Shown here: positions 9,010-55,148 of the stretch, in pieces
Numbering within the stretch: the stretch's first letter is position 1
Layout: each line of letters begins with the position of its first letter
Assembly (NCBI GenBank): GCA_017446585.1
Contig: JAFSQL010000002.1
Coordinates: forward strand, 29,084 to 93,083
Origin: Paludibacteraceae bacterium
Lineage (GTDB): Bacteria > Bacteroidota > Bacteroidia > Bacteroidales > Paludibacteraceae
Length of the DNA: 64,000 nt
Reading direction: 5' to 3'
Translations under genes and position numbers: made by a program
Notes under the pieces: model-generated
The model's database searches: none
What the model was told of the DNA's origin: nothing
The model's input: only the letters and a program-made list of their open reading frames with translations

Positions 9010-9026
9010 AAAATAAGAGGGAAACT

Positions 9027-12110: not shown

Positions 12111-14039
12111 TTGCGACGACTATTTTTTCTCATAGCATTCCTTTCCGCCTGTCTTTCGCTCCACGCTGAAAAGCCAAGTGCTTTTGAGCGTGTCCGAGCC
12201 CAAGCGGCAGCTGCGGCAGCCGCATCATCCACAACGTTGGGCACATCCTCCCAATCCAATTCCAATGCGCATACCTCCAAATCCAGCACGAGCAAGACTC
12301 CTTCCAAAGCGCAAATAAAACAACAACAAAAGAGGGAAAAGGAACTTCAGGAAAGACAACAAAAAAAAGAAAAAGAATTAGCCAAGAAGCAGGCGGAAAG
12401 AGCCAAAGCACAAGCAGAAAAAGACAAAGCCATCGCCAAGAAACAAGCTGAAAAGAATAAAAACCTTGCCGAACGCGAAAAAGATTTGGCAAAGAAACAA
12501 GCCGAGAAAGACAAAGCGCAGGCGGAACGTGAACACGACCTCGCCAAGAAGCAAGCGGAAAAAGAAAAGGCCGCCGCTGAACGGGAGAAAGACTTGGCAA
12601 AACGACAATCTGAAAAAGAAAAGGAACTTGCCAAAAGGCATGAAGAAAAAGAAAAAGCGTTAGCAAAAAAACAACACGAGAAAGAAAAAGCCCTTGCCAA
12701 GAATATACAAGAGCCCGTTTTTCCGCTTGATACGGTTAGAGAAAAAAAGCGAGCGTATGGCGTTGTGACTAAGGACACTACCCTTCAAAACCTCTATACC
12801 CTCAATAGTCCAATGAACGACTTCATGCCCTATGCTTTCGGCAAGCAACTTATCTTCTCCAGCGACCGCTATCGCGCGCCAGAATTGTTCAGCGAGGAGT
12901 GGAGCGAAAAGACCTACTTTGCGACTCGAAAAGGCAAGAACAATTGGAGCAAACAAAAGATGAACGGCTACAAGTGGTCGTCCGACAACAACACGGCACT
13001 TGTAGGTGTTGACGAACAATACTTCTACTTCTATCGCTCCTTCTGGTTGGACAACGGAGAAATTTATCGAGCATCACGCATCAAGAAAGGTTCAAAAGGG
13101 CGACCTGACAAGAAACGACCTTGGCGCGTAGGGCGACTTCATTACTATAACGACATCAACACGGAGTTTGACGAGACCTCGGTAGCCACGGTTTCGAGCG
13201 ACACGGTCTTCTTCGTTTCCAACCAAGGCGGCAACTACGACATCTACCTTCAAATCCGTGGCAGAATGCCACAACCTGTCCGAAACCTCAACACGTCTCA
13301 TGAGGAGAACGACCTCCATTACCTACCAGCCACACGAACTCTCTACTTTGCGTCCGACCGCCCCGGAGGTGCAGGTGGTTTTGACATCTACCAGACACAT
13401 TTCTATCCTGATGCCACCTGCGATGACCCGACACGCATTGCTGATACCATTGTCAATTCAGCCTATGACGACCGTGATTATCACCCTGTTAGCGATAGCG
13501 TCATCTACTTTGCGTCAAACCGTCCCGGAGGCATCGGCAACTTGGACATCTACGAAATCAACATCACGACATTAGGTGCGGAACCTCTTCCCGAAACGAA
13601 AGAGGACACTGTCGAAACGCTACGTGATGAACTCATTGAGAAACTGAAAGAATTGGGACTTTTCCCATTCAAGGGAGAAGTTCAAGTGGGCGCATACCAA
13701 TACATCAAGTCGTTACGGGCTTTCTACAAACGATTCCCTTGCATCAAGACACAAGACTTAAAGGAAGTTGAAATCGTCGTGGACGGAAAGATTCACGTGC
13801 ATAAATACATCGTCAACCGTGTGTATGACGATGTGTACGAAGCACTTGAGAAACAATACGAAATAGAGCAGATGCACTGCTTGCCCGAGAAGGAATTCAG
13901 CGACATGCCATTTATTGGCTGCTTAGACAGTGAAGGCAACCGATACGCCATCTTCTGGAAGCGAGAGGAGATGGAGTCGCACAACCTCTACTACATTTAC
14001 AAAAACGGGCAAATCGTGTGGAAATCACGCAAGTTCTAA
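12111..14039 (+). CDS. Secreted repeat protein: K/E/A coiled-coil repeats, TolB-like PD40 repeats, SPOR-like C-terminus
   Basis: TTG start with signal peptide MRRLFFLIAFLSACLSLHA. 18-aa LAKKQAEK-type repeats. Two PD40-like motifs, YFASDRPGGAGGFDIY and YFASNRPGGIGNLDIY. No OmpA motif at the C-terminus. Confidence 0.6.
   Translation: MRRLFFLIAFLSACLSLHAEKPSAFERVRAQAAAAAAASSTTLGTSSQSNSNAHTSKSSTSKTPSKAQIKQQQKREKELQERQQKKEKELAKKQAERAKAQAEKDKAIAKKQAEKNKNLAEREKDLAKKQAEKDKAQAEREHDLAKKQAEKEKAAAEREKDLAKRQSEKEKELAKRHEEKEKALAKKQHEKEKALAKNIQEPVFPLDTVREKKRAYGVVTKDTTLQNLYTLNSPMNDFMPYAFGKQLIFSSDRYRAPELFSEEWSEKTYFATRKGKNNWSKQKMNGYKWSSDNNTALVGVDEQYFYFYRSFWLDNGEIYRASRIKKGSKGRPDKKRPWRVGRLHYYNDINTEFDETSVATVSSDTVFFVSNQGGNYDIYLQIRGRMPQPVRNLNTSHEENDLHYLPATRTLYFASDRPGGAGGFDIYQTHFYPDATCDDPTRIADTIVNSAYDDRDYHPVSDSVIYFASNRPGGIGNLDIYEINITTLGAEPLPETKEDTVETLRDELIEKLKELGLFPFKGEVQVGAYQYIKSLRAFYKRFPCIKTQDLKEVEIVVDGKIHVHKYIVNRVYDDVYEALEKQYEIEQMHCLPEKEFSDMPFIGCLDSEGNRYAIFWKREEMESHNLYYIYKNGQIVWKSRKF
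12327..12701 (+). repeat. In-frame tandem repeat, about 54 nt (18 aa) unit, roughly 6-7 imperfect copies
   Basis: ELAKKQAERAKAQAEKDK / AIAKKQAEKNKNLAEREK / DLAKKQAEKDKAQAEREH / DLAKKQAEKEKAAAEREK / DLAKRQSEKEKELAKRHE... Confidence 0.8.
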
Positions 14040-41543: not shown

Positions 41544-43835
41544 ATGCGCGGAAAACTATTCACACTCATCGCACTCCTCTTGATTTTTTGCTCGTGTTCA
41601 GTTACGAAACACGTTCCTGACCACGAATACCTGCTGAACAAGGTTAAGATAGAGAAGGACACGAAGGTAGTCTCGGAAAGCACCATACGCCAATATATAC
41701 GTCAAAAGCCCAATTCGCGCATTTTGGGCAGTTTTCCGATGTCACTGCGCTTTTATTCGCTGTCGGGAACGGACACGACAAAGTGGATAAACCGATTTCT
41801 GCGCAGGAACGGAGAGGCTCCCGTCATCTATGACAAAGAAAAGACGGAAACGTCAACGGCAAACATCACCCGTCTGATGCAGACCAAGGGATATGCGGAT
41901 GCCGAGGTGACGACGGACACGATACACAAGGGAAAGAAGAAATTGAACCTGACTTACAGAATCAAGAGCGGTGAACCGTACAAGATTGCGATTATTGACT
42001 ACGCAATTGAAGATGACACGCTGAGGGCGTATATCCTGCCAGACACGACACAGAGGAGGGTGAACGTGGGTGACAGATTTGACATAGACGAACTGAAGGC
42101 GGAACGGACACGCATCGTGTCGAGACTGAAGCAACAGGGATTCTACTACGCAAATGTCGATCACCTCTATATCGAAGCGGACACTACGCTGGGAGGGAAG
42201 AGCGCCCATGTGACGTTCAAATCACGTCCGCTGACCAAGAACAATTCGGACGGAAGCGTTGACACGTTCGAGTGCCAACCACGACTGAGAATCAGGGACG
42301 TGAATATCTATCCATGGTTCTACACCGATGGAGGCAGCCCGCAAGAACAAGCCAAAGACTCGATCGTTTGCGGGAATATTCGCTACTACTACGGCTACAA
42401 AAGGCGTTTGTGCCCAAAGACGGTTTACATGAAGACCTTTACACTGCCGGGCAATTACTATGATGAGAACGATGTGAACAAGACAAATGCCGCCCTGTCA
42501 TCGCTACCCACGACGAAATACACATCGCTGTTCTTCGTTCCTGTCAAGGAGGCGCAAGATTCACTTTTGGACGCTTACGTATTAGTGTCGCCGAACAGGA
42601 TGCAATCCTATTCGATAGAAGCGGAGGGCACGAATACCGAAGGTGACATAGGAGCCGCCATCAACACGACGTACACGCACCGAAACGTGTTCCGCTCAGC
42701 CAACACCTTCAACTTCAAGACCCGCATGGCATACCAACCAATGGGCGACTTGGCGGACTTGCTCTCGGACAGGACGTTGGACTTGGGAACGGAGGTGTCT
42801 CTCACCTTTCCGCGCGTGTTGTTTCCGTTCATTTCGGAGAAGTTGAGGCGAAGAATCAGAGCCAACACGGAGTTGGCGACATCCGCCAACTGGCAGACGA
42901 CACCGTGGTATGACCGATTCATATTGTCATCGTCGTTCAAGTATCTGTGGACAACAGGGTCGAGAAACACGGAGTCATATTCGATTGCGCCAATAGATTT
43001 GAGTTTCGTTTATTTGCCAGAGATTTCCAACTACTTCAGGAACAATTATTTGGGCGAGAACAGCGTGATTCGCTATTCGTATCAAGACCACATGATTCTT
43101 GCCGCGTCGTTCTCGTTCTCACGTCACAACCACACGAAACCGAACCGAAATTATTTTTCGTATAGAGGTACAGTGGAGACCGCCGGTAACGTGTTGCACG
43201 GGATATGTTCTCTGGTAAGTCAGGCAAAGGACAGCGTGGGGTATTATGACATTATGGGCATTCGATTTTCACAATACGTGAAAGGAGAATTCGACTATTC
43301 GTTCTGCCAAGTGCTGGGTCAGAAAAGCAATATCGTATATCACTTTCGAGTAGGTGCCGCCTACCCATATGGAAACGCGGACGTGGTGCCATACGAGAAG
43401 CGATTCTTCAGCGGAGGCGCGAACAGCGTGCGCGGCTGGTCGGTGAGGACGTTGGGACCGGGAACGTACAAGAGTCCCACAAGTAGGGCGAATCTGATGC
43501 AGGCGGGCGATTTGTCATTAGACCTGAATGTCGAGTATCGGTTCAAGTTGTTTTGGCTGTTTGAAGGAGCGGCGTTTGTTGATGCCGGTAACATTTGGAC
43601 GATAAAGGATTATGAGGACCAACCGGGGGGAACGTTTGAAGCAAAGACCTTCTACAAGCAGTTGGCTATGGCTTATGGGTTGGGATTACGCCTTGACTTT
43701 TCATTTTTCGTGTTGAGGTGTGACGTGGGTTCGCAACTGCATGACCCCGCGGGGGAAACGCCAAGGAAGCGTTGGCGACATCCGCTGAACATTCACGACA
43801 TGGCGTTGCATCTCGCTATCGGTTATCCGTTCTAA
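41544..43835 (+). CDS. BamA/TamA-family outer membrane protein (surface antigen D15 type)
   Basis: Lipoprotein-like signal LLLIFCSCS, POTRA-like N-terminal repeats, and a C-terminal Omp85 barrel with RFFSGGANSVRGW. Ends ...IGYPF. Confidence 0.75.
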   Translation: MRGKLFTLIALLLIFCSCSVTKHVPDHEYLLNKVKIEKDTKVVSESTIRQYIRQKPNSRILGSFPMSLRFYSLSGTDTTKWINRFLRRNGEAPVIYDKEKTETSTANITRLMQTKGYADAEVTTDTIHKGKKKLNLTYRIKSGEPYKIAIIDYAIEDDTLRAYILPDTTQRRVNVGDRFDIDELKAERTRIVSRLKQQGFYYANVDHLYIEADTTLGGKSAHVTFKSRPLTKNNSDGSVDTFECQPRLRIRDVNIYPWFYTDGGSPQEQAKDSIVCGNIRYYYGYKRRLCPKTVYMKTFTLPGNYYDENDVNKTNAALSSLPTTKYTSLFFVPVKEAQDSLLDAYVLVSPNRMQSYSIEAEGTNTEGDIGAAINTTYTHRNVFRSANTFNFKTRMAYQPMGDLADLLSDRTLDLGTEVSLTFPRVLFPFISEKLRRRIRANTELATSANWQTTPWYDRFILSSSFKYLWTTGSRNTESYSIAPIDLSFVYLPEISNYFRNNYLGENSVIRYSYQDHMILAASFSFSRHNHTKPNRNYFSYRGTVETAGNVLHGICSLVSQAKDSVGYYDIMGIRFSQYVKGEFDYSFCQVLGQKSNIVYHFRVGAAYPYGNADVVPYEKRFFSGGANSVRGWSVRTLGPGTYKSPTSRANLMQAGDLSLDLNVEYRFKLFWLFEGAAFVDAGNIWTIKDYEDQPGGTFEAKTFYKQLAMAYGLGLRLDFSFFVLRCDVGSQLHDPAGETPRKRWRHPLNIHDMALHLAIGYPF

Positions 43836-43886
43836 CAGTTTTTTGGAAAACAATATCAAGCAACAAAATCACTCAAATTAGCGACA

Positions 43887-45398
43887 TCATTCCCCGTTCA
43901 ATTCCAAGACTTTCCGAAAACAAGCAATTCCCTCCTCCAGATTCTCGATTATCTTGGCGGCAATCTCATCAGGCTCGGGCAGGTTGTCAAGGTCGGTAAG
44001 GCTCTTGTCCTTTATCCAAAAAATATCGAGATTGGTTTTGTCGCGGGCGATTATCTCGTCGTAGGTGAACTTGCGCCAACGGCCTTCGGGATTCGACTCG
44101 CTCCACGTTTCGGTGCGCAGATTGCGGTTTTCTGGATTGTAGCACTTAATGAAATCTGCCAAATCCTCGAACGTGAGCGGCGACTTCTTAAGTGTGTGGT
44201 GAATGTTGGTGCGGTAGTCATAAATCCAAATGTCCTTGGTCTGCACATCCTTGCTGGCTGGGCGGTTATCGAAGAACAAAACATTGGCTTTCACGCCATT
44301 GGCATAGAAAATGCCTGTTGGCAGGCGCAGAATGGTGTGCAACTCGGTGGTTTTCATCAGTTGCTTGCGAATCTCCTCGCCCGCACCGCCTTCAAAAAGC
44401 ACATTGTCGGGCAGGACAACTGCCGCCTGACCATTGATTTTCAGCAAGGTCTTGATATGCTGAAGGAAATTCAACTGCTTGTTGGACGTGGTTTCCCAAA
44501 AATCCTGACGGTTGTAACTCAAATCCTCTTTCTCCACCTCGCCGTCCACGTTGGTAATGGTGATGCTGCTCTTTTTGCCGAAAGGCGGATTGGTGAGCAC
44601 ATAGTCGTAGCGGTTGCCTGTGTCGGACACAAGGGCATCGTTGGGCGAAATGAAATCCTCGCTGTCGAGTTCGCCAATGTTGTGCAGATAAAGGTTCATC
44701 AAGCACAGACGGCGCGTGTTGGCCACAATCTCGTTACCAAAGAAGGTCTTTTTCTTCAGAAACAGTTTCTGGTCTTTGTTGAGCGGCTGGCTGGCGATAT
44801 AGTCGTAGGCGGCAAGGAAGAAACCACCCGTTCCGCAGGCTGGGTCGATAATGGTCTTTTCGGGTTTGGGACGCACGCACGCCACCATAGCACGAATCAA
44901 CGCACGGGGCGTAAAATATTGTCCTGCACCGCTCTTGGTATCTTCGGCGTTCTTCTCCAAAAGGCCTTCGTAAATCTTGCCCTTCACATCGGAACCCATC
45001 AGCGACCAATTCTCGCGGTTGATCATCTCAATGACGCGCAAGAGTTTGGCAGGGTCTTGAATCTTGTTCTGGCTCTTGGTGTAAATCTGTCCCAACATTC
45101 CTTTTTCGGTGGCAAGGCTGCGAAGCATCTGCACATAGTAGGCTTCGAGTTCCGCACCGCGCTTGCTTGTGAGCGTTTCCCAATCGCACATTTCGCCATC
45201 GGCAATCTCCTTGCCCTCGGCATCCTTCAAGTGCGGGAACCTCAGTCCTTTGTTGTAGGGCGGACGGTTCATCTCGTCGGCCATCTTCAGGAAAAGCAGA
45301 TAGGTGATTTGCTCCAAATAATCGCCATAACTTACGCCATCGTCGCGCAGGACGTTGGCCATATTCCAGATTTTTGATATGATTGTTGATTCTGTCAT
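43887..45398 (-). CDS. hsdM: Type I restriction-modification system, DNA methyltransferase subunit M
   Basis: N-terminal HsdM_N (IWNMANVLRD...YLEQITYLLFLK), AdoMet motif DPACGTGGF and catalytic NPPFG. Start set at ATG 45398. Confidence 0.9.
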   Translation of the reverse strand: MTESTIISKIWNMANVLRDDGVSYGDYLEQITYLLFLKMADEMNRPPYNKGLRFPHLKDAEGKEIADGEMCDWETLTSKRGAELEAYYVQMLRSLATEKGMLGQIYTKSQNKIQDPAKLLRVIEMINRENWSLMGSDVKGKIYEGLLEKNAEDTKSGAGQYFTPRALIRAMVACVRPKPEKTIIDPACGTGGFFLAAYDYIASQPLNKDQKLFLKKKTFFGNEIVANTRRLCLMNLYLHNIGELDSEDFISPNDALVSDTGNRYDYVLTNPPFGKKSSITITNVDGEVEKEDLSYNRQDFWETTSNKQLNFLQHIKTLLKINGQAAVVLPDNVLFEGGAGEEIRKQLMKTTELHTILRLPTGIFYANGVKANVLFFDNRPASKDVQTKDIWIYDYRTNIHHTLKKSPLTFEDLADFIKCYNPENRNLRTETWSESNPEGRWRKFTYDEIIARDKTNLDIFWIKDKSLTDLDNLPEPDEIAAKIIENLEEGIACFRKVLELNGE

Positions 45399-45414
45399 AA
45401 ATTCTTGTCTGTCT

Positions 45415-46119
45415 TTACAATCCATAATACAATTTAATGGCGACACCGACAAATATTGCTATTGAAAAGCTCAACAATGTGCCTATCAATACATATTCCG
45501 ATTTCGCCTTGTCGCCTTCGGCAAAACGCAAAAGTGATTTTGCGGCTATGATAAATCCAACGGCTTCATATTGTCCCAGTAGCACAAACACCAACGAAAG
45601 AAGCCGTTCCACAATACCTATCAGTTTTCCGGCATTAGGCAAGTCTTCTGTATTATTATCGTCACTTCCTTTGCTAACCTTAATGTTTGCAACCTTGATA
45701 ATTTCTTTGATTATTATGTTGGAGGGCTTTAAACATACCAGAAAGCCCAACAACATAGCTATATATTTTTCTTCTACACCGCTCACACAATCAGGTAAGT
45801 TGCTTTTCCACAGATAGCAAACCGTCACAATTACAAGCAAGTGTATCAACTGGTCAATAAAGAAAATACCCTTACACTTGGAAGCATAACATTTCATGGC
45901 ATCGATTAGCAAATGAGAAACCGCTATTATTAATGCCACCCACCAAAAACTGAATGAAAACGAGAACAGCCAAGCGCAAACAAAGGTTATCAGAACATGT
46001 ATATAAAGTTTCGGAGACTTAAAAACTCTGTTTTCTTTGTCGGCGCACGACTTATCTGTCTGAAAATAGAAATCACTGATCGTGTGTGCAATTATTTGTA
46101 ATAGTAAAAACCGTATCAT
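45415..46119 (-). CDS. DUF3307-family polytopic membrane protein
   Basis: About 7 hydrophobic segments. N-terminal QIIAHTISDFYFQ plus later SHLLIDA and IDQLIHL His/Asp motifs, as recalled for DUF3307. Adjacent to a SatD-like gene, the usual pairing. Confidence 0.6.
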   Translation of the reverse strand: MIRFLLLQIIAHTISDFYFQTDKSCADKENRVFKSPKLYIHVLITFVCAWLFSFSFSFWWVALIIAVSHLLIDAMKCYASKCKGIFFIDQLIHLLVIVTVCYLWKSNLPDCVSGVEEKYIAMLLGFLVCLKPSNIIIKEIIKVANIKVSKGSDDNNTEDLPNAGKLIGIVERLLSLVFVLLGQYEAVGFIIAAKSLLRFAEGDKAKSEYVLIGTLLSFSIAIFVGVAIKLYYGL

Positions 46120-46121
46120 AA

Positions 46122-46814
46122 CTAAAAGTTTATTTGTTCGTAATACTTCAGCAACTGCTCTACAGCATTCCAGCCAAATGAGGTGGAATGTTGATTAACA
46201 GCAGGTTGCTTAATCCCCATTTTTTTGGATATTTCAATTTCGCTCATTCCTAACAGACTATAATATATAACCTCACATTGACGCTCCGATGCTCGCTTAA
46301 ACAGTATATCCAAAAAACCCATATACGCATTTATCTGCTGCGCCAATTTTGCATCCGAAGAATCAAAAAACAAGGTGTTTTTTATAACTATTTTCGATTT
46401 GTTCGAAGTCCGCTGGCGTTCTATTGCCCTTCCTGAGGCATATATGGCCTCACCATCCAACATATTTGTCCGCTTATCGGCAATGCGCATTTCACCTACA
46501 GCAATGGCGATTCTAACCCCGTATGTTTTAAACACACTCAAACGCTTCTTATCTACATTTTGACCCACACAGTCTGTATCAACCTTGAACTTTTTTATCA
46601 TCGCTTTTAAAAGCAGGGCTATACGCAATGAGTTTTGTGGATTACCTATATAAATTTCCACACTATCACCTTTGCTTAATCGGCCCCATGTGTCTTCGTA
46701 TTCTTTTTCTATTTGCTCAACAAAGACCTCTATCTCGTTCTGCAATTGACTTAAAGCACAAGGAGTCAGTTCGGTAGAAGACACTATGTCCGCTGAAATT
46801 GTAGCTCTATTCAT
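46122..46814 (-). CDS. SatD-family protein: cyclase-fold-like N-terminal domain plus C-terminal helix-turn-helix
   Basis: ISADIVSST and KGDSVEIYIG resemble the two Asp motifs of class III cyclase / SatD proteins. RIAIAVGEM...DGEAIYASGRAI block. C-terminal ERQCEVIYYSLLGMSEIEISKKMGIKQPAVNQH resembles a LuxR/sigma-70 region-4-type HTH. ATG 46814 preferred over the TTG at 46832. Confidence 0.6.
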   Translation of the reverse strand: MNRATISADIVSSTELTPCALSQLQNEIEVFVEQIEKEYEDTWGRLSKGDSVEIYIGNPQNSLRIALLLKAMIKKFKVDTDCVGQNVDKKRLSVFKTYGVRIAIAVGEMRIADKRTNMLDGEAIYASGRAIERQRTSNKSKIVIKNTLFFDSSDAKLAQQINAYMGFLDILFKRASERQCEVIYYSLLGMSEIEISKKMGIKQPAVNQHSTSFGWNAVEQLLKYYEQINF

Positions 46815-46829
46815 AAATTTTATTTTTTG

Positions 46830-46837
46830 CAAAGATA
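46830..46837 (-). promoter_or_regulatory. -7 promoter box (TAtcTTTG) for the satD-like/DUF3307/hsdM transcription unit
   Basis: The reverse complement of caaagata is TATCTTTG, 15 nt upstream of ATG 46814 and 6 nt downstream of repeat unit 1. Confidence 0.5.
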
Positions 46838-46843
46838 CTAAAT

Positions 46844-46926
46844 TTTATAAGCTAAACAACTTATAAACATAATTTATAAGCTAAACAACTTATAAACTGC
46901 ATTTATAAGCCAAACGGCTTATAAAT
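46844..46926. repeat. Three 25-bp palindromic units phased every 29 bp (putative operator array)
   Basis: Units at 46844-46868 and 46873-46897 are identical (TTTATAAGCTAAACAACTTATAAAC). The unit at 46902-46926 is TTTATAAGCCAAACGGCTTATAAAT. Each carries inverted arms TTATAAG(C)...(G)CTTATAA. Confidence 0.85.
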
Positions 46927-46929
46927 TCC

Positions 46930-48063
46930 TCACACTAACTCCCCGCTAAACGCCTTCTTGAGTATGCTTTGCCTGAGTGCCTCGGCTTGTTGCAGTGCGT
47001 TTTCAATGTAGGTTTCGCTTGCCGTTGCCTGCGACAGGCGCGATTCGATTTCCTTTACTATGCGCTGCTGCTCAGCGAGCGGGGGAAGGGGGATTTCGAT
47101 TAAACGAACTTTTTTTATTCCAAAAGCGGCTTGCGTTGTCGCTTTTTTTCCATCAAATAGCTGTTTCTCAACAATATTAGACCTAAATGTATTATACAAA
47201 AATTTTGCGTTTATCTTGTCTGTTGGTTGAATTAATACCACATTTGCCGATAATGCATACTCTTGCGGAAGAATAACATTGACGGGATTTCCAATTGTAC
47301 CGATTTTTCCTATTATAAAGTCACCTTCTTTTATAGAATACCTCTCTTTATGCTCTTTAAGAACATCTTTTGAAACCAGTCTTGCATTTTTTAAATTTAT
47401 GGTATTCGTTATGTAATCACAATCCTTAATGCTGACAAAAGGTATTCCATCTTTTTGTATTTTAGGCGTTCTATGACTTGGCTCTGGATCAATTGCATCC
47501 GCCACATCTCCCAACTTCACCATCTCCCATTTCCCCTCGTCATTATTCAGCCAATGGTTGAGCACGGCCTGCCTGTAGGTTTTGAGTTGTTGCTGTGCGG
47601 TGCGAAGGTGCTGCACGGCCTTGTCGAGTTCGGCGAAAAGGGTTTCTATGCGGGTTTCTATGGCGTGCTGGGTGGCGAGTGGGGGAAGGGGAATTTGCAA
47701 GTCTTCCGCGTTGTTTATAGTAACTTGTGGCTGTGCTGTCCCTGTAACCAACTTGGTTTTATTAGTTGCTTGTAATGTATAATACAAATACTTTTTGTTG
47801 ACCTTATTTTCCTCTTTAGGTGTGATTACCAATGAATTATTCGTAATAAAGCACTGTTTAGGCGAAATGTTGATTTTACCACTATATGCCCCTCGACAAG
47901 AGATTAAGACCTGTTCTTCTTCATATAGAAAAGAATCATAATATCCTATTATTCCATTTGCACCAAATACTGGGAATCCTTTGGGTTTCAAATTTTTTGT
48001 AGGCAATCCTTTCCCATATACGATTCCACAAATTTCGCCTAATTTATATGTTGGGTAATTCAT
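46930..48063 (-). CDS. hsdS: Type I restriction-modification system, specificity subunit S
   Basis: Two target-recognition domains separated by conserved helices (LPPLATQHAIETRIETLFAELDKA...; LPPLAEQQRIVKEIESRLS...LRQSILKKAFSGELV). Confidence 0.9.
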   Translation of the reverse strand: MNYPTYKLGEICGIVYGKGLPTKNLKPKGFPVFGANGIIGYYDSFLYEEEQVLISCRGAYSGKINISPKQCFITNNSLVITPKEENKVNKKYLYYTLQATNKTKLVTGTAQPQVTINNAEDLQIPLPPLATQHAIETRIETLFAELDKAVQHLRTAQQQLKTYRQAVLNHWLNNDEGKWEMVKLGDVADAIDPEPSHRTPKIQKDGIPFVSIKDCDYITNTINLKNARLVSKDVLKEHKERYSIKEGDFIIGKIGTIGNPVNVILPQEYALSANVVLIQPTDKINAKFLYNTFRSNIVEKQLFDGKKATTQAAFGIKKVRLIEIPLPPLAEQQRIVKEIESRLSQATASETYIENALQQAEALRQSILKKAFSGELV

Positions 48064-48653
48064 TTCAAGGTATTATTGTTAATGTCATCTGACAGCATTA
48101 CGTATGTGTTTCCTAAAATAACAAGAATGAAAATAATGAATTGAAAACTCCAATAATAGATAACGCCATTTATAGCATATTTACAGATTGTTCGGATTAT
48201 ATCCCCATATCCACACAAATTAAGTCGTGGAACTTGTGGTGAGAAATATATTACCGCCATTAGGAATATGAGTAATAGAGCCAAAACAATTGTGTATGAT
48301 ATTTGGCGTATTAAAAATTTTGAAAAATTCCTATAACGAATCAGATAGTTTCTTGCTTCTTCATTTTTGTCATCCTTCAATTGTTCTTTTTTTGCATTGT
48401 ACCGTTCTGTTACGATAAATAACAATCCGAAAAACAACCCAGCAAAAATGCTAATGCTGGTTATTAAATACGTGGCTATATCATTAGTTATAAAAATACC
48501 TGCAACAAGTAATAATGCACATACGAGCAATGGCAAGACATACATATAAAGCACGTATGTTTTGCTTTCCTCACGAGCGTTATCATCTTTGTATTTTAAT
48601 GATTCAAACGCCTCCTTTCTGATTTCTAATATTCTTATTTTAGTCCACATCAT
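48060..48653 (-). CDS. Hypothetical four-TM membrane protein (cargo ORF-B)
   Basis: Four hydrophobic segments with a K/E-rich cytoplasmic loop. ATGA overlap with the hsdS start and 14-nt overlap with ORF-A. No recognisable family. Confidence 0.55.
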   Translation of the reverse strand: MMWTKIRILEIRKEAFESLKYKDDNAREESKTYVLYMYVLPLLVCALLLVAGIFITNDIATYLITSISIFAGLFFGLLFIVTERYNAKKEQLKDDKNEEARNYLIRYRNFSKFLIRQISYTIVLALLLIFLMAVIYFSPQVPRLNLCGYGDIIRTICKYAINGVIYYWSFQFIIFILVILGNTYVMLSDDINNNTLK

Positions 48654-49617
48654 TTGGTGTATATCCTATTTCTTTTTTTATCTTCTCTAAGATTGCATCT
48701 GTATGCTCCCTTATTTTCCCATAATCAGGATATTGCTTACCATTTTCTTTCAAACTCTCTGGCAAAATTATATTTGGCAGAATATCAAGATTTCTAGACA
48801 AACGCGCTTGCGATTGCCGTCCTGATTCATCTTTATATGTTGCAATTACATCATAATCATGTCCCTCAGCATTCATCTCAAAAGAAGACAAATCAGCATC
48901 TATTGGCTGATTTTTATCCACCTGTTTCCAAAATTCTTCTATTGGAACATCAAATCCTGAAATTTTTATTTCAACTTTCAATCCTTCAAATGACGCAAAT
49001 AACTGGTTCAATGCACCTCTTGCTTTCTCGCTCATCTTTGTTTTTGATAATATCAAATTTTGGACTATGCTTTTTTTCTTAAATTTTTCCTTATATTCTT
49101 TCGGAACGTACTTCATTTTGTCAACTGAATAGCCATAACCTCTGATAAAAGATTTTATCTTCTGCTCTATCAAAGAAACCACACCAACTTCTGTATAACT
49201 TTGAACCATCAAAACACCATGGTCTAAATCATACGGCATCCATAACTTAAAATAGTATGGTAGTGTAGAAACTTCATCATCCGAAATAGACTTACCAATA
49301 GACTTTGAACTGGAAGATTTATAAACATCTTGCTCTACTCCTGTAAGTCCGCCAACCAACATACCATCTATAATATTCATTTGTGGCATTGAATTAACAG
49401 ATTGAACCGCAATTGCTTTTGTTTCCTCCCTGTTTTTTATAAACTTATCGTTAAAAGACTTTATAAACAGATTATTAAACTTACTAAAGGCTGCGTTTTT
49501 ATCTGTTTCAGAAGTAACGTCTTTCAACATATCTTTATAAGTAACAGGGTCTTTACTTGCTGTTTTCTTAATGACAAATTGATATATTGTCAACTTCAAA
49601 GTGTAACCTTTCTCCAT
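48640..49617 (-). CDS. Hypothetical soluble protein, 325 aa (cargo ORF-A)
   Basis: Long uninterrupted ORF in an AT-rich segment, co-oriented with and overlapping ORF-B. No TM segment, no Walker A, no nuclease or HEPN motif seen by eye. Confidence 0.55.
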   Translation of the reverse strand: MEKGYTLKLTIYQFVIKKTASKDPVTYKDMLKDVTSETDKNAAFSKFNNLFIKSFNDKFIKNREETKAIAVQSVNSMPQMNIIDGMLVGGLTGVEQDVYKSSSSKSIGKSISDDEVSTLPYYFKLWMPYDLDHGVLMVQSYTEVGVVSLIEQKIKSFIRGYGYSVDKMKYVPKEYKEKFKKKSIVQNLILSKTKMSEKARGALNQLFASFEGLKVEIKISGFDVPIEEFWKQVDKNQPIDADLSSFEMNAEGHDYDVIATYKDESGRQSQARLSRNLDILPNIILPESLKENGKQYPDYGKIREHTDAILEKIKKEIGYTPNDVD

Positions 49618-49672
49618 ATTTATATTTTTTGTGCAAACCGTAGTTACGTAAATTCAACAAAATCATTGTTTT

Positions 49673-49703
49673 ATAATTGTGCAACCACTGGTTGCACAAT
49701 TAT
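49673..49703. promoter_or_regulatory. Perfect 14-bp inverted repeat with 3-nt spacer between hsdR and ORF-A
   Basis: ATAATTGTGCAACC-ACT-GGTTGCACAATTAT. A related half-site TTGTGCAAACC lies at 49629-49639. No U-tract follows on either strand. Confidence 0.6.
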
Positions 49704-49727
49704 GTGGATATTTATCTGGTAGTGTAC

Positions 49728-52529
49728 TCATGCTACTAATATTTCATTTAGTTCCTCAATTATCGCCATCATCTCGTTACCAAACAGCTGATACATCTTG
49801 CCTCGTCCGCCTTGGGCGTCGAAAGGGGTGTAGTCCAAATCGTCAATGTCAAGGTGGTAACTGCTCACAATGTGGTCTTTTATCATTCGCAGCCATTCAA
49901 TCTGCTCGGGCGTGAAGCGGTTGCGGTTACCCGTGTGCTGGCGGAACAGCCACGCGTTGAAATTCCGCTCAATGGTGTTGTTGAAGGCCTCAAGACTTTG
50001 GTCAATGCCGCAGGCGTGGCGCACCAACGAAACCAATGCCGTAAGTTCCGTAACAGGGCGGTTGGCTTTCACCTTCTCAATAGCACAATAGGCATCCCAA
50101 ACGTACATCGGTGCTAACATCGGCTTGTCCTGCTTCAGTTTTTCGAGCAACTCCTGCGCCATCTGAAGGGTGAGATTGCGGTGGTTGTAGGGCTGGTTGT
50201 AGAAAATGCTCAACGCCATAATCTCGTCTTTATGCTGTTCCAAATACTCGGTGAAATCGTGCACCGTCTCTTTCGCCTTTTCGAGTGTGAAACTGTTGAA
50301 CTCGCTTTTCAGCACCGTGTCAAGGTTCACGGTGTCTATCTTCTGGTCGTGCAGGTTGCGCACGGTCACAATGTATTCGTTCAACTCGCCGTTGAAGGTG
50401 CTGCTGGCAACATCAGCCAAACGCTGCTGCGCCTTTCTGCGTATCTCATCCTCAATGGCGGGGGTTAGTTCGGTTGGCGGAATCTTTTTCAGTTCTGCCT
50501 GCGCTGCGTCGTCGATTTTGTCAGGGTCGAAAGCCGATAGCAGTTCGGCACTCATCTGCCCCAACGTCTTACCCCGCGACAAGGTTTCTATCTTTTCCTT
50601 CTCTTTTTCGGTAACCTCTTTGTTCAATCGAATCAAGCGATTGGCCAACGAAGTGAACAAATCTTCTTCCGTCACGCCCATAGTGACAGCACCCAACAAA
50701 TCTTTCAGCGGAACGGTGGGCTTGCGTTCCAACGGTCGACTGTCGGTTTTCTTGGTCTGCGTCACGCCCACGGCATCCACAATCACAAAATGCGTTTTGG
50801 TCTGCGCCGTGCGGCTCACCAATTGCAGCGAGTCGGGGTTTATGGTTCGTGTGCCACGGCCCTTCATCTGCTCGAAATAGTTGGCACTGCGCACATCGCG
50901 CATAAAGAGCAGTACTTCGAGCGGCTTCACGTCGGTGCCTGTGGCTATCATATCCACCGTGACGGCAATGCGCGGATAATATTGGTTGCGGAAGCGGTTG
51001 AGCACCGATTTGGGGTCCTCATCAATCTTGTAGGTTACCTTCTTGCAGAAGTCGTTGCCTTCGTCGAACTCCTCACGCACAATCTTGATAATGTCGTCGG
51101 CGTGGCTGTCGGTCTTGGCGAAAATGAGCGTCTTGGGCACTTCGTACTGCCCGCTCTCATCGTAGCGGTTCGGGAAAATCTCCTCCATCAGCGCCTTGCG
51201 GAACTGGCGGATAACGGTGCGTATCTGGCTCGGATTCACCACCGAACGGTCCAAATCGTTCTTTTTATATTCGGTGTCCTCATCCACCTGCTGCCAACGG
51301 GTTTTGCGAGTGGCTTTGTCACGATAGTCGATATGCCATCCCGCCTTGATTAGCCCGCCGTTTTTCGATATTTCCGTTTCAATGGAATAGACATCGTACG
51401 GCACATTCACGCCATCCACCACTGATTGCTCGTAGGTGTATTCGCTCACCACATTTTCGTTGAAGAAGCCGAAGGTGCGCTTGTCGGGCGTGGCGGTCAG
51501 ACCGATAAGGAACGCATCGAAATAGTCGAGCACCTGTTTCCAAAGGTTGTAAATGCTGCGGTGGCACTCATCAATCACCACAAAATCAAACTGCTCAATA
51601 GGCACTTTGGCGGTGTATTCCACAGGAATGGCTTGCTGGTCCTTCAGTCTCTGCTGCAGCCACGACGATTCGTTCGGGTTGTCGGTTTCGGCGGATTCGT
51701 CCAACTCTTCGCCTTTCAGAATCGAATAAAGCCTTTGTATGGTGGAAATGCACACTTGACTATCATTGGCAATGTAACTCGACGAGAGCCGTTGCACATT
51801 GTAGAGTTCGGTGAACTTGCGGTTGTCGTCGTTCGGGCGGAAGTTCATAAATTCCTGTTCCGCCTGTTCGCCCAAATTGCGTGTATCTACAAGAAACAGA
51901 ATACGTTTGGCCTTGGCGAATTTCAGCAGACGGTAAATGAACGTGATAGCAGTGAAAGTCTTGCCCGCACCCGTCGCCATCTGAATCAGCGCCCGCGGGC
52001 GGTTATTGCGGAACGATTCTTCGAGATTCGTCACCGCCTTAATCTGTGCTGGTCGAAGTCCCGTTGTGTCAAGTGCAGGAAAGTCCTGCAAACGGCATCG
52101 AAGGCTCATGCCGTTGCACATCCATTCGGCAAAAGTTTCGGGTCGGTGAAACGCAAACACCACACGGCTGCGGGGTTTGGGGTCGCTGTAGTCGGTGAAG
52201 TGGGTCAACGTGCCTGTTGTTTCATAAACGTAGTTCAGTGGCTCGTTGTTCAGGTATTTCAGCTTGGCATTAGCATACCGCACCGATTGCTCCTCAACCA
52301 CAGTGATATTGACAGCTTCCTCCTCGCGTTTCGCCTCGATAATGCCCATAGGTTTGCGGTTAACAAACAGCACATAGTCGGCGGGTCCAGCATCGGTCTG
52401 ATACTCACGAACCGCCACACCAATTCCCGCCGAAAAGTCTATCTTGCTTTTCGACTGAATCTTCCAACCTGCCTGTTCAAGCAGACTGTCGATTTTATCG
52501 CGTGCTATCTGTTCGGGGTTTTGATTCAT
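49728..52529 (-). CDS. hsdR: Type I restriction-modification system, endonuclease subunit R
   Basis: N-terminal HSDR_N region (ARDKIDSLLEQAGW), helicase motif I MATGAGKT, DEAD-like VIDECH, motif III TATP, and an EcoEI_R_C-like C-terminus. Start set at ATG 52529. Confidence 0.9.
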   Translation of the reverse strand: MNQNPEQIARDKIDSLLEQAGWKIQSKSKIDFSAGIGVAVREYQTDAGPADYVLFVNRKPMGIIEAKREEEAVNITVVEEQSVRYANAKLKYLNNEPLNYVYETTGTLTHFTDYSDPKPRSRVVFAFHRPETFAEWMCNGMSLRCRLQDFPALDTTGLRPAQIKAVTNLEESFRNNRPRALIQMATGAGKTFTAITFIYRLLKFAKAKRILFLVDTRNLGEQAEQEFMNFRPNDDNRKFTELYNVQRLSSSYIANDSQVCISTIQRLYSILKGEELDESAETDNPNESSWLQQRLKDQQAIPVEYTAKVPIEQFDFVVIDECHRSIYNLWKQVLDYFDAFLIGLTATPDKRTFGFFNENVVSEYTYEQSVVDGVNVPYDVYSIETEISKNGGLIKAGWHIDYRDKATRKTRWQQVDEDTEYKKNDLDRSVVNPSQIRTVIRQFRKALMEEIFPNRYDESGQYEVPKTLIFAKTDSHADDIIKIVREEFDEGNDFCKKVTYKIDEDPKSVLNRFRNQYYPRIAVTVDMIATGTDVKPLEVLLFMRDVRSANYFEQMKGRGTRTINPDSLQLVSRTAQTKTHFVIVDAVGVTQTKKTDSRPLERKPTVPLKDLLGAVTMGVTEEDLFTSLANRLIRLNKEVTEKEKEKIETLSRGKTLGQMSAELLSAFDPDKIDDAAQAELKKIPPTELTPAIEDEIRRKAQQRLADVASSTFNGELNEYIVTVRNLHDQKIDTVNLDTVLKSEFNSFTLEKAKETVHDFTEYLEQHKDEIMALSIFYNQPYNHRNLTLQMAQELLEKLKQDKPMLAPMYVWDAYCAIEKVKANRPVTELTALVSLVRHACGIDQSLEAFNNTIERNFNAWLFRQHTGNRNRFTPEQIEWLRMIKDHIVSSYHLDIDDLDYTPFDAQGGRGKMYQLFGNEMMAIIEELNEILVA

Positions 52530-52601
52530 GAACGAAAATTTATTAGCTAATGTGCCATAAATTAATCGCACAGCGAGTACGCTAACGATTGCAACTATAT
52601 G

Positions 52602-52609
52602 CAAATATA
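52602..52609 (-). promoter_or_regulatory. -7 promoter box (TAtaTTTG) upstream of hsdR
   Basis: The reverse complement of caaatata is TATATTTG, about 72 nt upstream of ATG 52529. Confidence 0.4.
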
Positions 52610-52834
52610 TAAATAAAGACCAACCTCAAGGAATAGAAAACTTCATTTATGTAATCTTTCACTTCAGGAGCCTTAGTCAAGCACGTATTCCAATGTGAGG
52701 ACGTTGCCGCCTCCAACTCCTTTTCAGTTTCTGAAAAAGGTGCTTTTGCGGTGATTTAGAGATAAACCATCGATTTACCTTCTTAAACACCATGTAAACA
52801 CCTCCCCATTGACTCTCAAATGACATCCGACCAC

Positions 52835-52876
52835 AAAAAAGAGCCTTCCGCAAGGTCAAGTCCAAGCAAAAGGCTC
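52835..52876 (-). terminator. Putative rho-independent terminator of recQ
   Basis: On the minus strand: GAGCCTT...AAGGCTC, a stem with a large loop, followed by TTTTTTG. It lies 56 nt past the recQ stop. Confidence 0.45.
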
Positions 52877-52931
52877 AAATATCATCACCCACATCAAACC
52901 AAATTCACACGAAATAAAAAGGAGAAAATGG

Positions 52932-55148
52932 TCAGTTGGCGTTTTCGGAGAGGAACTTGACGCGAACGAGTCGAATTTCCTCTTCAGGGTAGCCTTCGGG
53001 ACCGAGTTCCCGAATGGCGTCATCGACATCAGGGGACTCCGCCTCACGGAAGTATTCGTAAATGTCTTCAATGTGGTCTTCATCCATCTCCTCATTGAGG
53101 AAGTAGTTGATGTCAAGGCGCGTTCCGCTGTGAACGATGGATTCGAGTTCATCAAGGAGTTCGAAGAAGTCGAGGTCGTTCATCTCGGCAATGTCGTAGA
53201 GCGAAATCTTTTTGTCAATGCTTTGGATGATAGAGATTTTGCATTTGGACTTGTCGGGCATGGAGCGTACGCGAATGTCTTCGGGACGTTCGATTTCGTT
53301 CTCGACGCAGTAGTTCTTGATGAGATCAAGGAATTCGGGCACGAAGTCACGCTCGACCTTGCCTTCACCAACACCAGGTATGCTTTTGAGTTCTTCCTTG
53401 GTGATGGGATAGATGGAGGTCATAGCTTCGAGCGATGGGTCGCTAAAGATGACGTAAGGGGCGACTTTCTTGCGTGAGGCTACTTTCTTGCGCAAGGTCT
53501 TGAGCATGCTGAAGAGTTGTTCGTCGGTGGCACCGCCACCTCCAGAAGATTTGAGGAAGACTTCGTCGTCGGCGTCTTCGTCTTCTTCGTCGTCTGAATG
53601 GATGTGGACGGAAATTTTGAAGTCGGTAGGTTTTTTGATGTATTTCACGCCAGCATCCGTGATTTTCAGCAGGCCGTAGTTTTCAATGTCCTTGTCAAGG
53701 TATCCCGCCATGAAGGCTTGGTGTACGACGGAGTCAAGGAAGACGGGGTCGGTGTCAGGGAATGTGCCAAAGGATTCAAGTTGCTCGTGGCCGCAATTTT
53801 TCACGTCTTGCGTGGCTTTGCCGACAAGGATGTTGATGATGTGGTCAGCTTTGAATTTGCCTTTGAGCAGGACTACGAGCTCGAGTATGGCGGCAAGTTC
53901 TTCCTTGGCGTCAACGAGTTTTTTTGGCGTGGTGCAATTGTCGCACATGCCGCAGTTGTCCTCGGGGTATTCTTCGCCGAAGTAATGTAGGAGGAATTTG
54001 CGTCGGCAGAGCATGGACTCCGCATAGGACTGCGTTTCGCGCAGGAGTTGTTTGCCGATGTCTTTTTCAGCGACGGGTTTTCCCTCCATGAATTTATCTA
54101 ACTTCTGCAGGTCTTTTTCGCTATAGAAGGCGATGCAACGCCCTTCCTCGCCATCGCGTCCCGCACGTCCGGTTTCCTGATAGTAACCTTCGAGCGATTT
54201 TGGCATATCGTAGTGTATGACAAAGCGCACGTCGGGTTTGTCAATACCCATTCCGAATGCAATGGTGGCAACAATGACATCAACTTCCTCCATGAGGAAT
54301 TTGTCCTGGTTCTGTGAACGCAGTTGAGCGTCCATGCCAGCATGGTAAGGGAGCGCGGAGATGCCGTTGATGCAGAGTGTCTGTGCGAGTTCCTCGACCT
54401 TGCTTCGTGAGAGACAATAGATGATGCCGCTCTTGCCAGAGTTTTGCTTGATGAATTTTATGAGGTCTTTGTCAACATTTTTTGTTTTTGGCCGAACTTC
54501 GTAGAAGAGGTTAGGTCTGTTGAAGGAGGATTTGAATACGGAGGTGATATTGAGTTCAAGGTTTTTGATGATGTCGTGTTGCACTTTTGGCGTCGCGGTG
54601 GCGGTAAGTGCGATGACGGGAGCCTGTCCGATGGCGATGATGTCCTCTCGTATGCGTCGGTATTCAGGTCGGAAGTCATGTCCCCACTCGGAGATGCAGT
54701 GCGCCTCATCAATAGCGTAGAAGGAGATTTTGATGGTTTTGAGGAATTGTATGTTCTCTTCTTTGCTTAATGATTCAGGAGCGACGTAAAGCAGTTTGGT
54801 TTTTCCTGTTTGGACGTCACGTTTAACGGCTTCGATGGCGGACTTGTTGAGCGAGGAGTTAATGAAGTGCGCCACGTTGTCGGTGGAGGAGAAGTTGCGC
54901 ATCGCGTCAACTTGGTTCTTCATGAGGGCGATGAGCGGCGAGACGACGATGGCGGTTCCTTCCATGAGGAGGGATGGCAGTTGGTAGCAAAGGGATTTGC
55001 CACCGCCTGTGGGCATGAGTACAAAGGTGTCGTTGCCGGCAAGCAGATTACGAATGACGGCTTCTTGGTTGCCTTTGAATTGGTCGAAGCCGAAGAATTT
55101 TTTCAACGGTGTGATGAGGTCCACGTTCGTTTGTTTTCTGTTTGACAT
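52932..55148 (-). CDS. recQ: ATP-dependent DNA helicase RecQ
   Basis: FGFDQFKGNQEAV, MPTGGGKSLCYQLP, DEAHCISEWGHDFRPEY, RQC zinc motif CRRKFLLHYFGE...CGMCDNC, and a C-terminal HRDC. Confidence 0.95.
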   Translation of the reverse strand: MSNRKQTNVDLITPLKKFFGFDQFKGNQEAVIRNLLAGNDTFVLMPTGGGKSLCYQLPSLLMEGTAIVVSPLIALMKNQVDAMRNFSSTDNVAHFINSSLNKSAIEAVKRDVQTGKTKLLYVAPESLSKEENIQFLKTIKISFYAIDEAHCISEWGHDFRPEYRRIREDIIAIGQAPVIALTATATPKVQHDIIKNLELNITSVFKSSFNRPNLFYEVRPKTKNVDKDLIKFIKQNSGKSGIIYCLSRSKVEELAQTLCINGISALPYHAGMDAQLRSQNQDKFLMEEVDVIVATIAFGMGIDKPDVRFVIHYDMPKSLEGYYQETGRAGRDGEEGRCIAFYSEKDLQKLDKFMEGKPVAEKDIGKQLLRETQSYAESMLCRRKFLLHYFGEEYPEDNCGMCDNCTTPKKLVDAKEELAAILELVVLLKGKFKADHIINILVGKATQDVKNCGHEQLESFGTFPDTDPVFLDSVVHQAFMAGYLDKDIENYGLLKITDAGVKYIKKPTDFKISVHIHSDDEEDEDADDEVFLKSSGGGGATDEQLFSMLKTLRKKVASRKKVAPYVIFSDPSLEAMTSIYPITKEELKSIPGVGEGKVERDFVPEFLDLIKNYCVENEIERPEDIRVRSMPDKSKCKISIIQSIDKKISLYDIAEMNDLDFFELLDELESIVHSGTRLDINYFLNEEMDEDHIEDIYEYFREAESPDVDDAIRELGPEGYPEEEIRLVRVKFLSENAN

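Follow-up and report, generated by a model that had tools for sequence, protein, structure and literature searches.

A mobile gene pair embedded in a type I restriction-modification operon of a Paludibacteraceae bacterium: a candidate RexAB-like membrane defence module

Introduction

The closest analogue that we can name for the gene pair described here is phage lambda's RexAB system, in which rexA (279 amino acids (aa), soluble) is followed by rexB (144 aa, with four transmembrane (TM) segments), the two lying beside the repressor gene cI. The RexA structure has a globular domain split into residues 1-139 and 248-279, a seven-stranded antiparallel sheet flanked by helices, which is interrupted by a dimerisation domain of four strands and four helices (residues 143-234); the recombination-associated protein RdgC is given as a structural relative (PMC11077077). 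It is already known that sequences diverge extremely within the RexAB class. The experimentally validated system of Pseudomonas putida (PP_5643/5644) has no BLAST-level similarity to lambda, and its four-TM protein damages the membrane once stimulated by the RexA-like protein (PMC12894663). The same absence of BLAST-level similarity to lambda applies to validated RexAB-type systems of actinophages (Mycobacterium phage Sbash gp30/gp31 and Gordonia phage CarolAnn); Sbash gp31 needs its central cytoplasmic loop for defence, and DUF4747 is the domain common to RexA and Sbash gp30 (PMC6426596). Here we analyse ORF-A and ORF-B, two overlapping open reading frames (ORFs) that lie between hsdR and hsdS of a type I restriction-modification (R-M) operon, on the minus strand of a 64,000-nucleotide (nt) stretch of DNA, hereafter the window, from a Paludibacteraceae bacterium (GenBank assembly GCA_017446585.1, contig JAFSQL010000002.1, positions 29,084 to 93,083). 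A preliminary description of the window, made without database searches, had presented them as an unrecognisable two-gene module with the layout of a defence pair, and named Kiwa and some abortive-infection systems as examples of that layout.

Kiwa, a widespread defence against phages and conjugation, also consists of a four-TM membrane protein and a soluble partner of ~315 aa. There are precedents, then, for a soluble-plus-four-TM layout, and there are precedents for defence genes embedded in other systems. PrrC is almost exclusively embedded in type I R-M (10.1101/2024.01.29.577857) and TgvAB lies inside the VPI-2 type I cluster of Vibrio cholerae (PMC11411939); embedding inside defence systems has been a successful predictor of defence function (10.1101/2024.01.29.577857; TgvAB, PMC11411939). 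A survey of 'guilt-by-embedding' (Payne et al. 2024) confirmed seven new systems and left over half of the embedded genes unexplained, and the word 'membrane' appears nowhere in its main text (10.1101/2024.01.29.577857). Like the defence genes found embedded in type I R-M, BREX, DISARM and Hma systems, ORF-A and ORF-B occur both within an intact type I system, where they lie between hsd genes, and outside such systems; they differ from PrrC, TgvAB and the HEC and PDC candidates in having a membrane component and no nuclease, ATPase or GmrSD domains.

Conservation of the gene pair

ORF-A (48640-49617; ATG start) encodes a soluble protein of 325 aa, and ORF-B (48060-48653; ATG start) a predicted inner-membrane protein of 197 aa with four TM segments. 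The 14-nt overlap between them (48640-48653) implies translational coupling, and the TGA stop codon of ORF-B overlaps the ATG of hsdS within the sequence ATGA (48060-48063), a coupling which implies that the pair is co-expressed with the restriction enzyme. Sizes, coordinates and both overlaps were confirmed as they had originally been reported.

The pairing of the two genes is obligate. An ORF-B homologue stands directly downstream of the ORF-A homologue in all 34 related loci that have enough downstream DNA, and likewise in six further loci (L040, L042 and the viral loci L044-L047; related loci are cited by number), and the pairing is kept down to an ORF-A identity of 17-20% to the window protein. 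The distance from the end of ORF-A to the start of ORF-B is -23 to +5 nt (27 related loci), and the pairwise identities of the two proteins are correlated (r=0.915; 28 loci). The objection that the preliminary description raised against its own reading, that homologues might not be co-conserved as a pair, is clearly refuted. Both genes evolve under purifying selection, since the ratio of non-synonymous to synonymous substitution (dN/dS) against three relatives is 0.06-0.24 for ORF-A and 0.07-0.15 for ORF-B; given these ratios, the homologue clusters and the confident AlphaFold2 (AF2) models described below, they are real genes and not chance ORFs. Strict pairing and purifying selection over such deep divergence argue for a selected joint function.

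Relatives of the pair are numerous and anonymous. A collection of 5.8 billion proteins contains 55 clusters of ORF-A homologues and 33 of ORF-B homologues, none of either with a Pfam domain or an informative name. With an ORF-A profile, HMMER extends the superfamily, counted as cluster representatives at 50% identity, to 867 at E<=1e-3 and to 360 at E<=1e-10; its members are almost all full-length proteins of 310-350 aa, and every ORF-A cluster member whose name was looked up is a 'hypothetical protein'. Among 185,579 species, each represented by one genome, there are 24 ORF-A loci, nearly all in Bacteroidota, the best match being to rumen Paludibacteraceae metagenome-assembled genomes (MAGs; 92%). 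Two relatives fall outside that phylum (L033 and L036), both on Bifidobacteriaceae MAG contigs that end before the partner gene; their placement could be the result of inter-phylum transfer or a binning artefact. A tblastn search with ORF-A and two phage-borne relatives found no match in cultured phages and plasmids.

Two further features of the family were observed. When the window is compared with L011 and L016, ORF-B is far better conserved than ORF-A (80-84% against 61-62% aa identity), and in L014 both stand at ~90%; the gap in L011 and L016 reflects either faster change in ORF-A, as in an arms-race sensor, or recombination with a breakpoint within the cassette. L037, L040 and L042, which belong to the most distant clade (ORF-A ~17-19% identical to that of the window), have a third gene after ORF-B. 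Those of L037 (11639-12670) and L040 (9644-10681) overlap ORF-B and encode homologous proteins of 343-345 aa (6e-61 mutually) that have no Pfam match; that of L042 (9712-10935) starts 33 nt past ORF-B and encodes an unrelated 407-aa protein. Some lineages may therefore have three-gene systems.

Mobility and foreign composition

ORF-A and ORF-B form a mobile cassette. They are embedded between hsdR and hsdS in four further Bacteroidales loci (L011, L014, L015 and L016), each of which keeps the 4-nt ATGA junction between ORF-B and hsdS, and the nucleotide identities among these loci are mosaic. Against L016 the window is 91% identical in hsdR and 92% in hsdM, and 74% in the pair; against L014 and L015 it is 76-77% identical in hsdR and 86% in hsdM, and 91% in the pair. 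These opposed identities indicate that exchange of the cassette has gone on separately from the restriction genes, the slot staying the same. Elsewhere, tyrosine integrases adjoin the pair (L001, L004, L006 and L042), and in L002 it sits on a segment resembling an integrative and conjugative element (ICE), with TraG/TrwB-type, ArdC and RadC genes.

The slot immediately upstream of ORF-A is empty in the window and holds other genes in its relatives. L014 has a DUF1016/YhcG PD-(D/E)xK nuclease gene there (8811-9857), followed by a block (9858-10000) that resembles the 3' end of hsdR (~91% identical over the block). L011 (9312-9821) and L016 (9603-9965) have small GIY-YIG genes, and L016 has another at 13590-13988, such that the block of the pair and hsdS is flanked on both sides. 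GIY-YIG endonucleases of the homing type might be what exchanges the cassette and so produces the mosaic identities.

The composition of the pair is foreign to the restriction genes. ORF-A and ORF-B have GC-contents of 0.327 and 0.313, against 0.515 in hsdR and 0.505 in hsdM, and the difference widens at third codon positions (GC3 of 0.28 and 0.31, against 0.66 and 0.67). Low GC relative to hsdR had been noted before and taken as a sign of separate acquisition, and both the measurement and the interpretation are upheld, GC3 and mosaic identity together supporting an acquisition separate from that of the hsd genes. The contrast extends beyond the pair: hsdS (GC3 0.39) and a second embedded gene pair (45415-46832; GC3 0.38-0.41) are AT-rich as well, and so all the DNA between hsdR and hsdM is compositionally foreign.

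Genomic neighbourhoods

Gene-neighbourhood analysis, one of the checks proposed at the outset, returned neighbours that are typical of defence genes and mobile elements. Restriction-modification families dominate a pooled scan of 82 neighbour proteins, and individual loci place the pair beside RloB and AAA_21 genes (L006), SIR2_2 (L042), NERD (L001), RhuM (L009), or an SLFN-type helicase together with an M78/helix-turn-helix (HTH) pair (L004). In Capnocytophaga (L021) the pair directly follows genes for an SNF2 helicase, an Eco57I/MmeI-type methylase and an SMC-like ATPase, a three-gene layout that recurs, judged by ORF size alone, in L023; in Sphingobacterium (L028) it directly precedes genes for an SNF2 helicase and a large methylase, as it does, again by ORF size alone, in L029. 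Helicase, methylase and ATPase genes are the defining set of Hma systems (10.1101/2024.01.29.577857), and the neighbours in L021 and L028 are Hma-like.

The pair also occurs on phage-like DNA. Five IMG/VR contigs that have it are temperate-phage-like, one of the copies being degraded. In L047 a CI-type repressor gene (HTH_3 and Peptidase_S24) lies upstream of it on the same strand and an integrase gene comes after it; in L044 the gene before it is of the Cro/C1 HTH type. The gene before it in L045 and L046 matches PHROG families of transcriptional regulators, and a block of small early-type genes is oriented divergently from the pair; these positions are probably also beside the repressor in an immunity region.

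Properties of the two proteins

ORF-A matches nothing in Pfam or PADLOC at E<=1, nor in NCBIfam, and among PHROGs it has a single, non-significant match (phrog_2787, E=0.34) and none to a family with annotated function. Its profiles A1 and A3 gave chance-level matches only against PDB sequences. Fifty-nine distant relatives were compared with Pfam (E<=0.01), PADLOC (E<=0.01) and PHROGs, and the sole recurrent families were two PHROGs of unknown function; PglX and a cyclase model of PADLOC were matched once each, and no PADLOC model was matched by more than one relative. The description of the pair as an unrecognised module holds across the Pfam, NCBIfam, PADLOC and PHROG libraries, none of which gave a meaningful match. 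ORF-A has no TM segment (the highest Kyte-Doolittle mean over 19 residues is 0.89), and regular-expression searches for Walker A, HEPN Rx4-6H, HNH-like and PD-(D/E)xK motifs came back empty, in agreement with what had been concluded by eye.

The AF2 model of ORF-A is confident (predicted local distance difference test (pLDDT) 87.5, predicted template modelling score 0.81). Its N-terminal part (residues 8-140) runs strand, two helices, six strands, giving a seven-stranded antiparallel sheet (a beta-meander) with two helices; a middle alpha/beta domain (147-272) alternates five helices with five strands, and a long C-terminal helix occupies residues 299-316. Foldseek against the PDB gave no match with E<0.01, whereas against viral models (BFVD) it gave matches to five phage proteins that are uncharacterised (E between 1.8e-18 and 1e-7) and to one 'recombination associated protein' (1.8e-5). 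RdgC and YejK/NdpA were considered as ORF-A relatives on the lead of that BFVD match name, and hhalign found no signal for either. The positions conserved across the superfamily (G85, G89, G90, P128, Q139, P172 and P281) are mostly glycines and prolines, plus Q139, a pattern that speaks for binding or sensing by ORF-A rather than for enzymatic activity.

ORF-B has an N-terminal amphipathic helix and four hydrophobic segments predicted to span the membrane. The loop between TM2 and TM3, previously called K/E-rich, proves to be just that (residues 86-111, with seven K+R and five D+E), and the basic N-terminus and basic loop imply an N-in/C-in topology. Its AF2 model is an all-helical bundle without strands (pLDDT 76.3), for which no fold match was found. 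Conserved features include the motifs ISIFAGLFF in TM2 and NYLxRYxNFS running from the loop into TM3, polar residues in or at the ends of TM helices (S68, S119, N162 and Q171), and an acidic C-terminal DDIN tail with D189 and D190 conserved. The polar TM residues, loop motif and acidic tail would suit a gated pore together with a docking surface.

Profile searches with ORF-B gave weak hydrophobic matches (SecD/SecF at 7.7e-4, phrog_2429 at 9e-4), which we treat as compositional, and nothing in PADLOC at E<=1 or among PDB sequences. TIGR01218, the 'tandem five-TM protein' of Gram-positive bacteria, matches residues 7-138 (E=1.8e-8) with 34.4 bits against a cut-off of 35 bits; this may be remote homology or just hydrophobic composition, and the family, whose threshold ORF-B does not reach, has no assigned function. 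To our knowledge, an ORF-A-like partner is not a feature of TIGR01218 proteins. The models of PADLOC-DB v2.0.0 (2023), which include at least some of the PDC candidates (e.g., PDC-M27C), gave no match to ORF-A or ORF-B at E<=1.

Comparison with RexAB and Kiwa

ORF-A and ORF-B share their gene order with lambda rexA and rexB and conform to the general RexAB plan of a first gene for a soluble protein of ~280-330 aa and, immediately after it, a small gene for a four-TM protein. When RexB is analysed in the same way as ORF-B, the same layout emerges, with four TM segments of which TM2 and TM3 are joined by the main basic loop, consistent with N-in/C-in. The ORF-A model and the RexA structure have the same order of elements and nearly the same domain sizes, a comparison made by element order and not by superposition. 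The BFVD match to a 'recombination associated protein' is also in keeping with RexA, for which RdgC is the structural relative given (PMC11077077). The phage-borne copies in L047 and L044 lie beside the repressor as rexAB does in lambda, whereas the window copy lies in a chromosomal type I R-M operon.

There are differences from lambda Rex also. ORF-A is ~45 residues longer than RexA and ORF-B ~50 longer than RexB, with an additional N-terminal amphipathic helix and a longer loop; the host belongs to Bacteroidota, and the copy in the window is translationally coupled to a type I R-M operon. Homology of ORF-A to RexA is not demonstrable, with Pfam, hhalign and Foldseek against the PDB all giving no signal. 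Our contention is that the pair is built like, and probably works like, RexAB, and not that it is a RexAB homologue. It is probably new as a pair of protein families, with an architecture that falls within the known kind of RexAB-type two-component membrane systems.

The resemblance to Kiwa is confined to composition. Gene order is reversed, kwaA being upstream of kwaB and the membrane gene here downstream. KwaA forms a six-stranded intracellular beta-barrel from its first intracellular loop (ICL1) and C-terminus, and the ORF-B model is all-helical; KwaB has a Rossmann-like domain followed by DUF4868, and the N-terminal half of the ORF-A model is an antiparallel beta-meander. No DUF4868 match was obtained from Pfam, where it is expected to be present, nor any PADLOC match, where KwaA and KwaB models are expected, and there are no Kiwa-named entries among the top 50 PDB fold matches of either protein. 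Kiwa membership is rejected on gene order, profiles, the barrel of KwaA and the N-terminal domain of ORF-A. Of the defence-pair layout envisaged in the preliminary description, the defence part is in keeping with the neighbourhoods and would have its closest analogue in RexAB, a better one than Kiwa, while the likeness to Kiwa fails on every defining feature that could be compared.

Proposed function and alternatives

That the pair is some sort of module for conflict or defence seems to us fairly probable. In the more specific model that we tentatively favour, to which we give a little less than an even chance, it is an autonomous two-gene exclusion or abortive-infection module resembling RexA and RexB. 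ORF-A, as a cytosolic two-domain protein, would sense an infection cue, which could be a phage protein, a DNA-protein complex or replicating DNA. Once activated, it would engage the cytoplasmic faces of ORF-B, namely the N-terminal helix, the basic TM2-TM3 loop with its NYLxRY motif and the acidic C-terminal tail. ORF-B would then oligomerise or open, the inner membrane would be depolarised or permeabilised, and phage growth would stop. Inserted between hsdR and hsdS, the cassette would provide a second layer of defence. The passage of the signal from ORF-A to ORF-B, the permeabilisation of the membrane and the defence role itself are inferred.

Several observations weigh against this model. 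Pfam, which is expected to hold RexA, RexB and DUF4747, has no match to ORF-A (E<=1) or to its 59 relatives (E<=0.01). In hhalign, ORF-A profiles reached a probability below 1% against both lambda RexA and an eight-sequence RexA profile, which was built from searches of phages, IMG/VR and metagenomes and describes a narrow family (members 45-100% identical); ORF-B against RexB reached 6%. Neither RexA (8TWQ) nor RdgC (2OWL) is among the top 50 Foldseek PDB matches of the ORF-A model. ORF-A lacks invariant residues of catalytic type, and its isoelectric point of 7.7 is no strong hint of DNA binding. Two loci (L009 and L040) are flanked mostly by housekeeping genes. Finally, the direction of signalling could be reversed, as it is in Kiwa.

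Were it reversed, ORF-B would sense phage attachment, DNA injection or conjugation, and a membrane-tethered ORF-A would bind the incoming DNA and block its replication without killing the cell. The composition of the pair (a four-TM protein with a soluble protein of ~320 aa) fits such a scheme, as do its occurrence in conjugative-element-like and prophage contexts, which Kiwa shares, and the absence of enzymatic motifs from ORF-A, which is compatible with a binding protein. However, every testable feature that defines Kiwa fails here (gene order, DUF4868 and PADLOC models, beta-barrel, Rossmann-like domain and fold matches), and we regard the reversed scheme as unlikely. We give somewhat more credence, though still rather little, to the pair being cargo of mobile elements, selfish or neutral, that plays no part against phages, whether as an addiction pair of toxin-antitoxin type, a carrier-specific entry or superinfection exclusion function, or a membrane function that has nothing to do with conflict, for which defence loci would simply be insertion hot spots. 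Variable cargo is indeed present on both sides of hsdS, in the slots that reach to hsdR and to hsdM, with GIY-YIG and DUF1016/YhcG nuclease genes among it; integrases and ICE genes accompany the module, and housekeeping genes are its neighbours at some loci. But a strict two-gene structure maintained by purifying selection over very deep divergence speaks for joint function under selection, and the prophage position next to the repressor is the site of exclusion genes expressed by lysogens.

The setting of the window copy invites another explanation, that the pair is a guard or accessory of R-M, an analogue of PrrC tied, physically or in function, to a type I or helicase-methylase complex, which would fire once an anti-restriction protein of a phage inactivates the enzyme, or else would regulate or anchor it. 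The pair is inside the operon and coupled to hsdS, and the ATGA junction is kept in four loci whose hsdS target-recognition regions share only short stretches with that of the window; distant lineages adjoin methylase systems of other types (L021, L023, L028, L029, L034, L025 and L037), and PrrC provides the precedent of a defence gene that is almost exclusively embedded in type I R-M. Yet there are no R-M genes in the examined flanks of L001, L002, L004, L006, L009, L040, L042 and the viral loci. The hsd genes are not a constant companion: the pair is embedded among them only in the window, L011, L014, L015 and L016, L034 has them within 3 kb, and most other loci are without hsd genes. Since most homologous pairs have no R-M genes nearby, the pair is not an obligate R-M accessory. 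Moreover, the cassette recombines independently of hsdR and hsdM, and defence genes of any sort are commonly found together with R-M. A guard role of this general sort appears to us improbable, slightly more so than the Kiwa-like reversal. Least probable of all, in our estimation, is its most elaborate form, in which the pair would monitor the type I complex (elsewhere, the helicase-methylase-ATPase complex) and collapse the membrane potential when a phage anti-restriction factor disables that complex, as a membrane-acting equivalent of PrrC drawn from two families without known relatives, with the coupling to hsdS setting the stoichiometry of guard and enzyme.

If the RexAB-like model is correct, the pair would represent a new family of membrane abortive-infection systems with ~867 clusters at 50% identity, all of them now 'hypothetical', and those members that were placed belong mainly to Bacteroidota, including rumen, gut and oral lineages, for which characterised defence systems are few. 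The pair would, in addition, clearly exemplify the splicing of one defence module into another's operon at the level of translation. Embedding of this kind allows mere sharing of a promoter to be told apart from real cooperation with the host system; the pair is small (1.56 kb) and self-contained, and its natural contexts (type I R-M, Hma-like systems and prophage immunity regions) offer ready comparisons.

Other features of the operon

The complete gene string in the window, all on the minus strand, is hsdR, ORF-A, ORF-B, hsdS, a 236-aa ORF, a DUF3307 gene and hsdM. The type I restriction subunit encoded by hsdR (49728-52529) is EcoEI/type IB-like (Pfam ResIII, EcoEI_R_C and HSDR_N; PADLOC REase_I). 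Mechanical ORF calling starts it from TTG 52604 (958 aa), whereas the homologues in L011, L014, L015 and L016 align only from ATG 52529 (933 aa). The hsdS gene (46930-48063) encodes a protein with two target-recognition domains (Pfam Methylase_S in two stretches, 1.4e-40; PADLOC Specificity_I). At the end of the operon, hsdM (43887-45398) encodes the type I methyltransferase (Pfam N6_Mtase and HsdM_N; PADLOC MTase_I, 7e-191), and alignment to L014 and L016 makes 45398 the most likely start, rather than TTG 45452.

Between hsdS and hsdM is the second embedded soluble-plus-membrane pair (45415-46832). It consists of a gene for a 236-aa soluble protein (46122-46832) with a weak C-terminal HTH of the LuxR/sigma-70 region 4 type and one for a 234-aa multi-TM DUF3307 protein (45415-46119) that matches phrog_2470, a 'moron' membrane protein; the two genes overlap by 4 nt. 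This pair is absent in L014 and L015, where hsdS abuts hsdM, and in L016 the slot is occupied by a GIY-YIG gene.

Both spacers flanking the cassette and hsdS contain repeated structures; Rfam families have no match over 43000-53500, which covers them both. A scan for sigma-70 promoters and terminators gave counts that were not clearly above shuffled expectation, the sigma-70 consensus not being applicable to Bacteroidota promoters, and no exact TAnnTTTG -7 motif was seen by eye upstream of ORF-A. In the 110-nt spacer between hsdR and ORF-A (49618-49727) there is a perfect palindrome of 15+15 nt at 49673-49703, ATAATTGTGCAACCA-C-TGGTTGCACAATTAT. It recurs with one mismatch in the closest relatives, L014 and L015, which are its sole other carriers, and is absent upstream of ORF-A in L011 and L016; it could be an operator, an RNA hairpin, a terminator or an attenuator. 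The 97-nt spacer between hsdS and the 236-aa ORF (46833-46929) is filled by three tandem 29-nt repeats (46844-46930; 100%, 90% and 72% identity), each of which holds an 8-bp inverted repeat, TTTATAAG...CTTATAAA, and these could form hairpins or serve the downstream HTH protein as operators.

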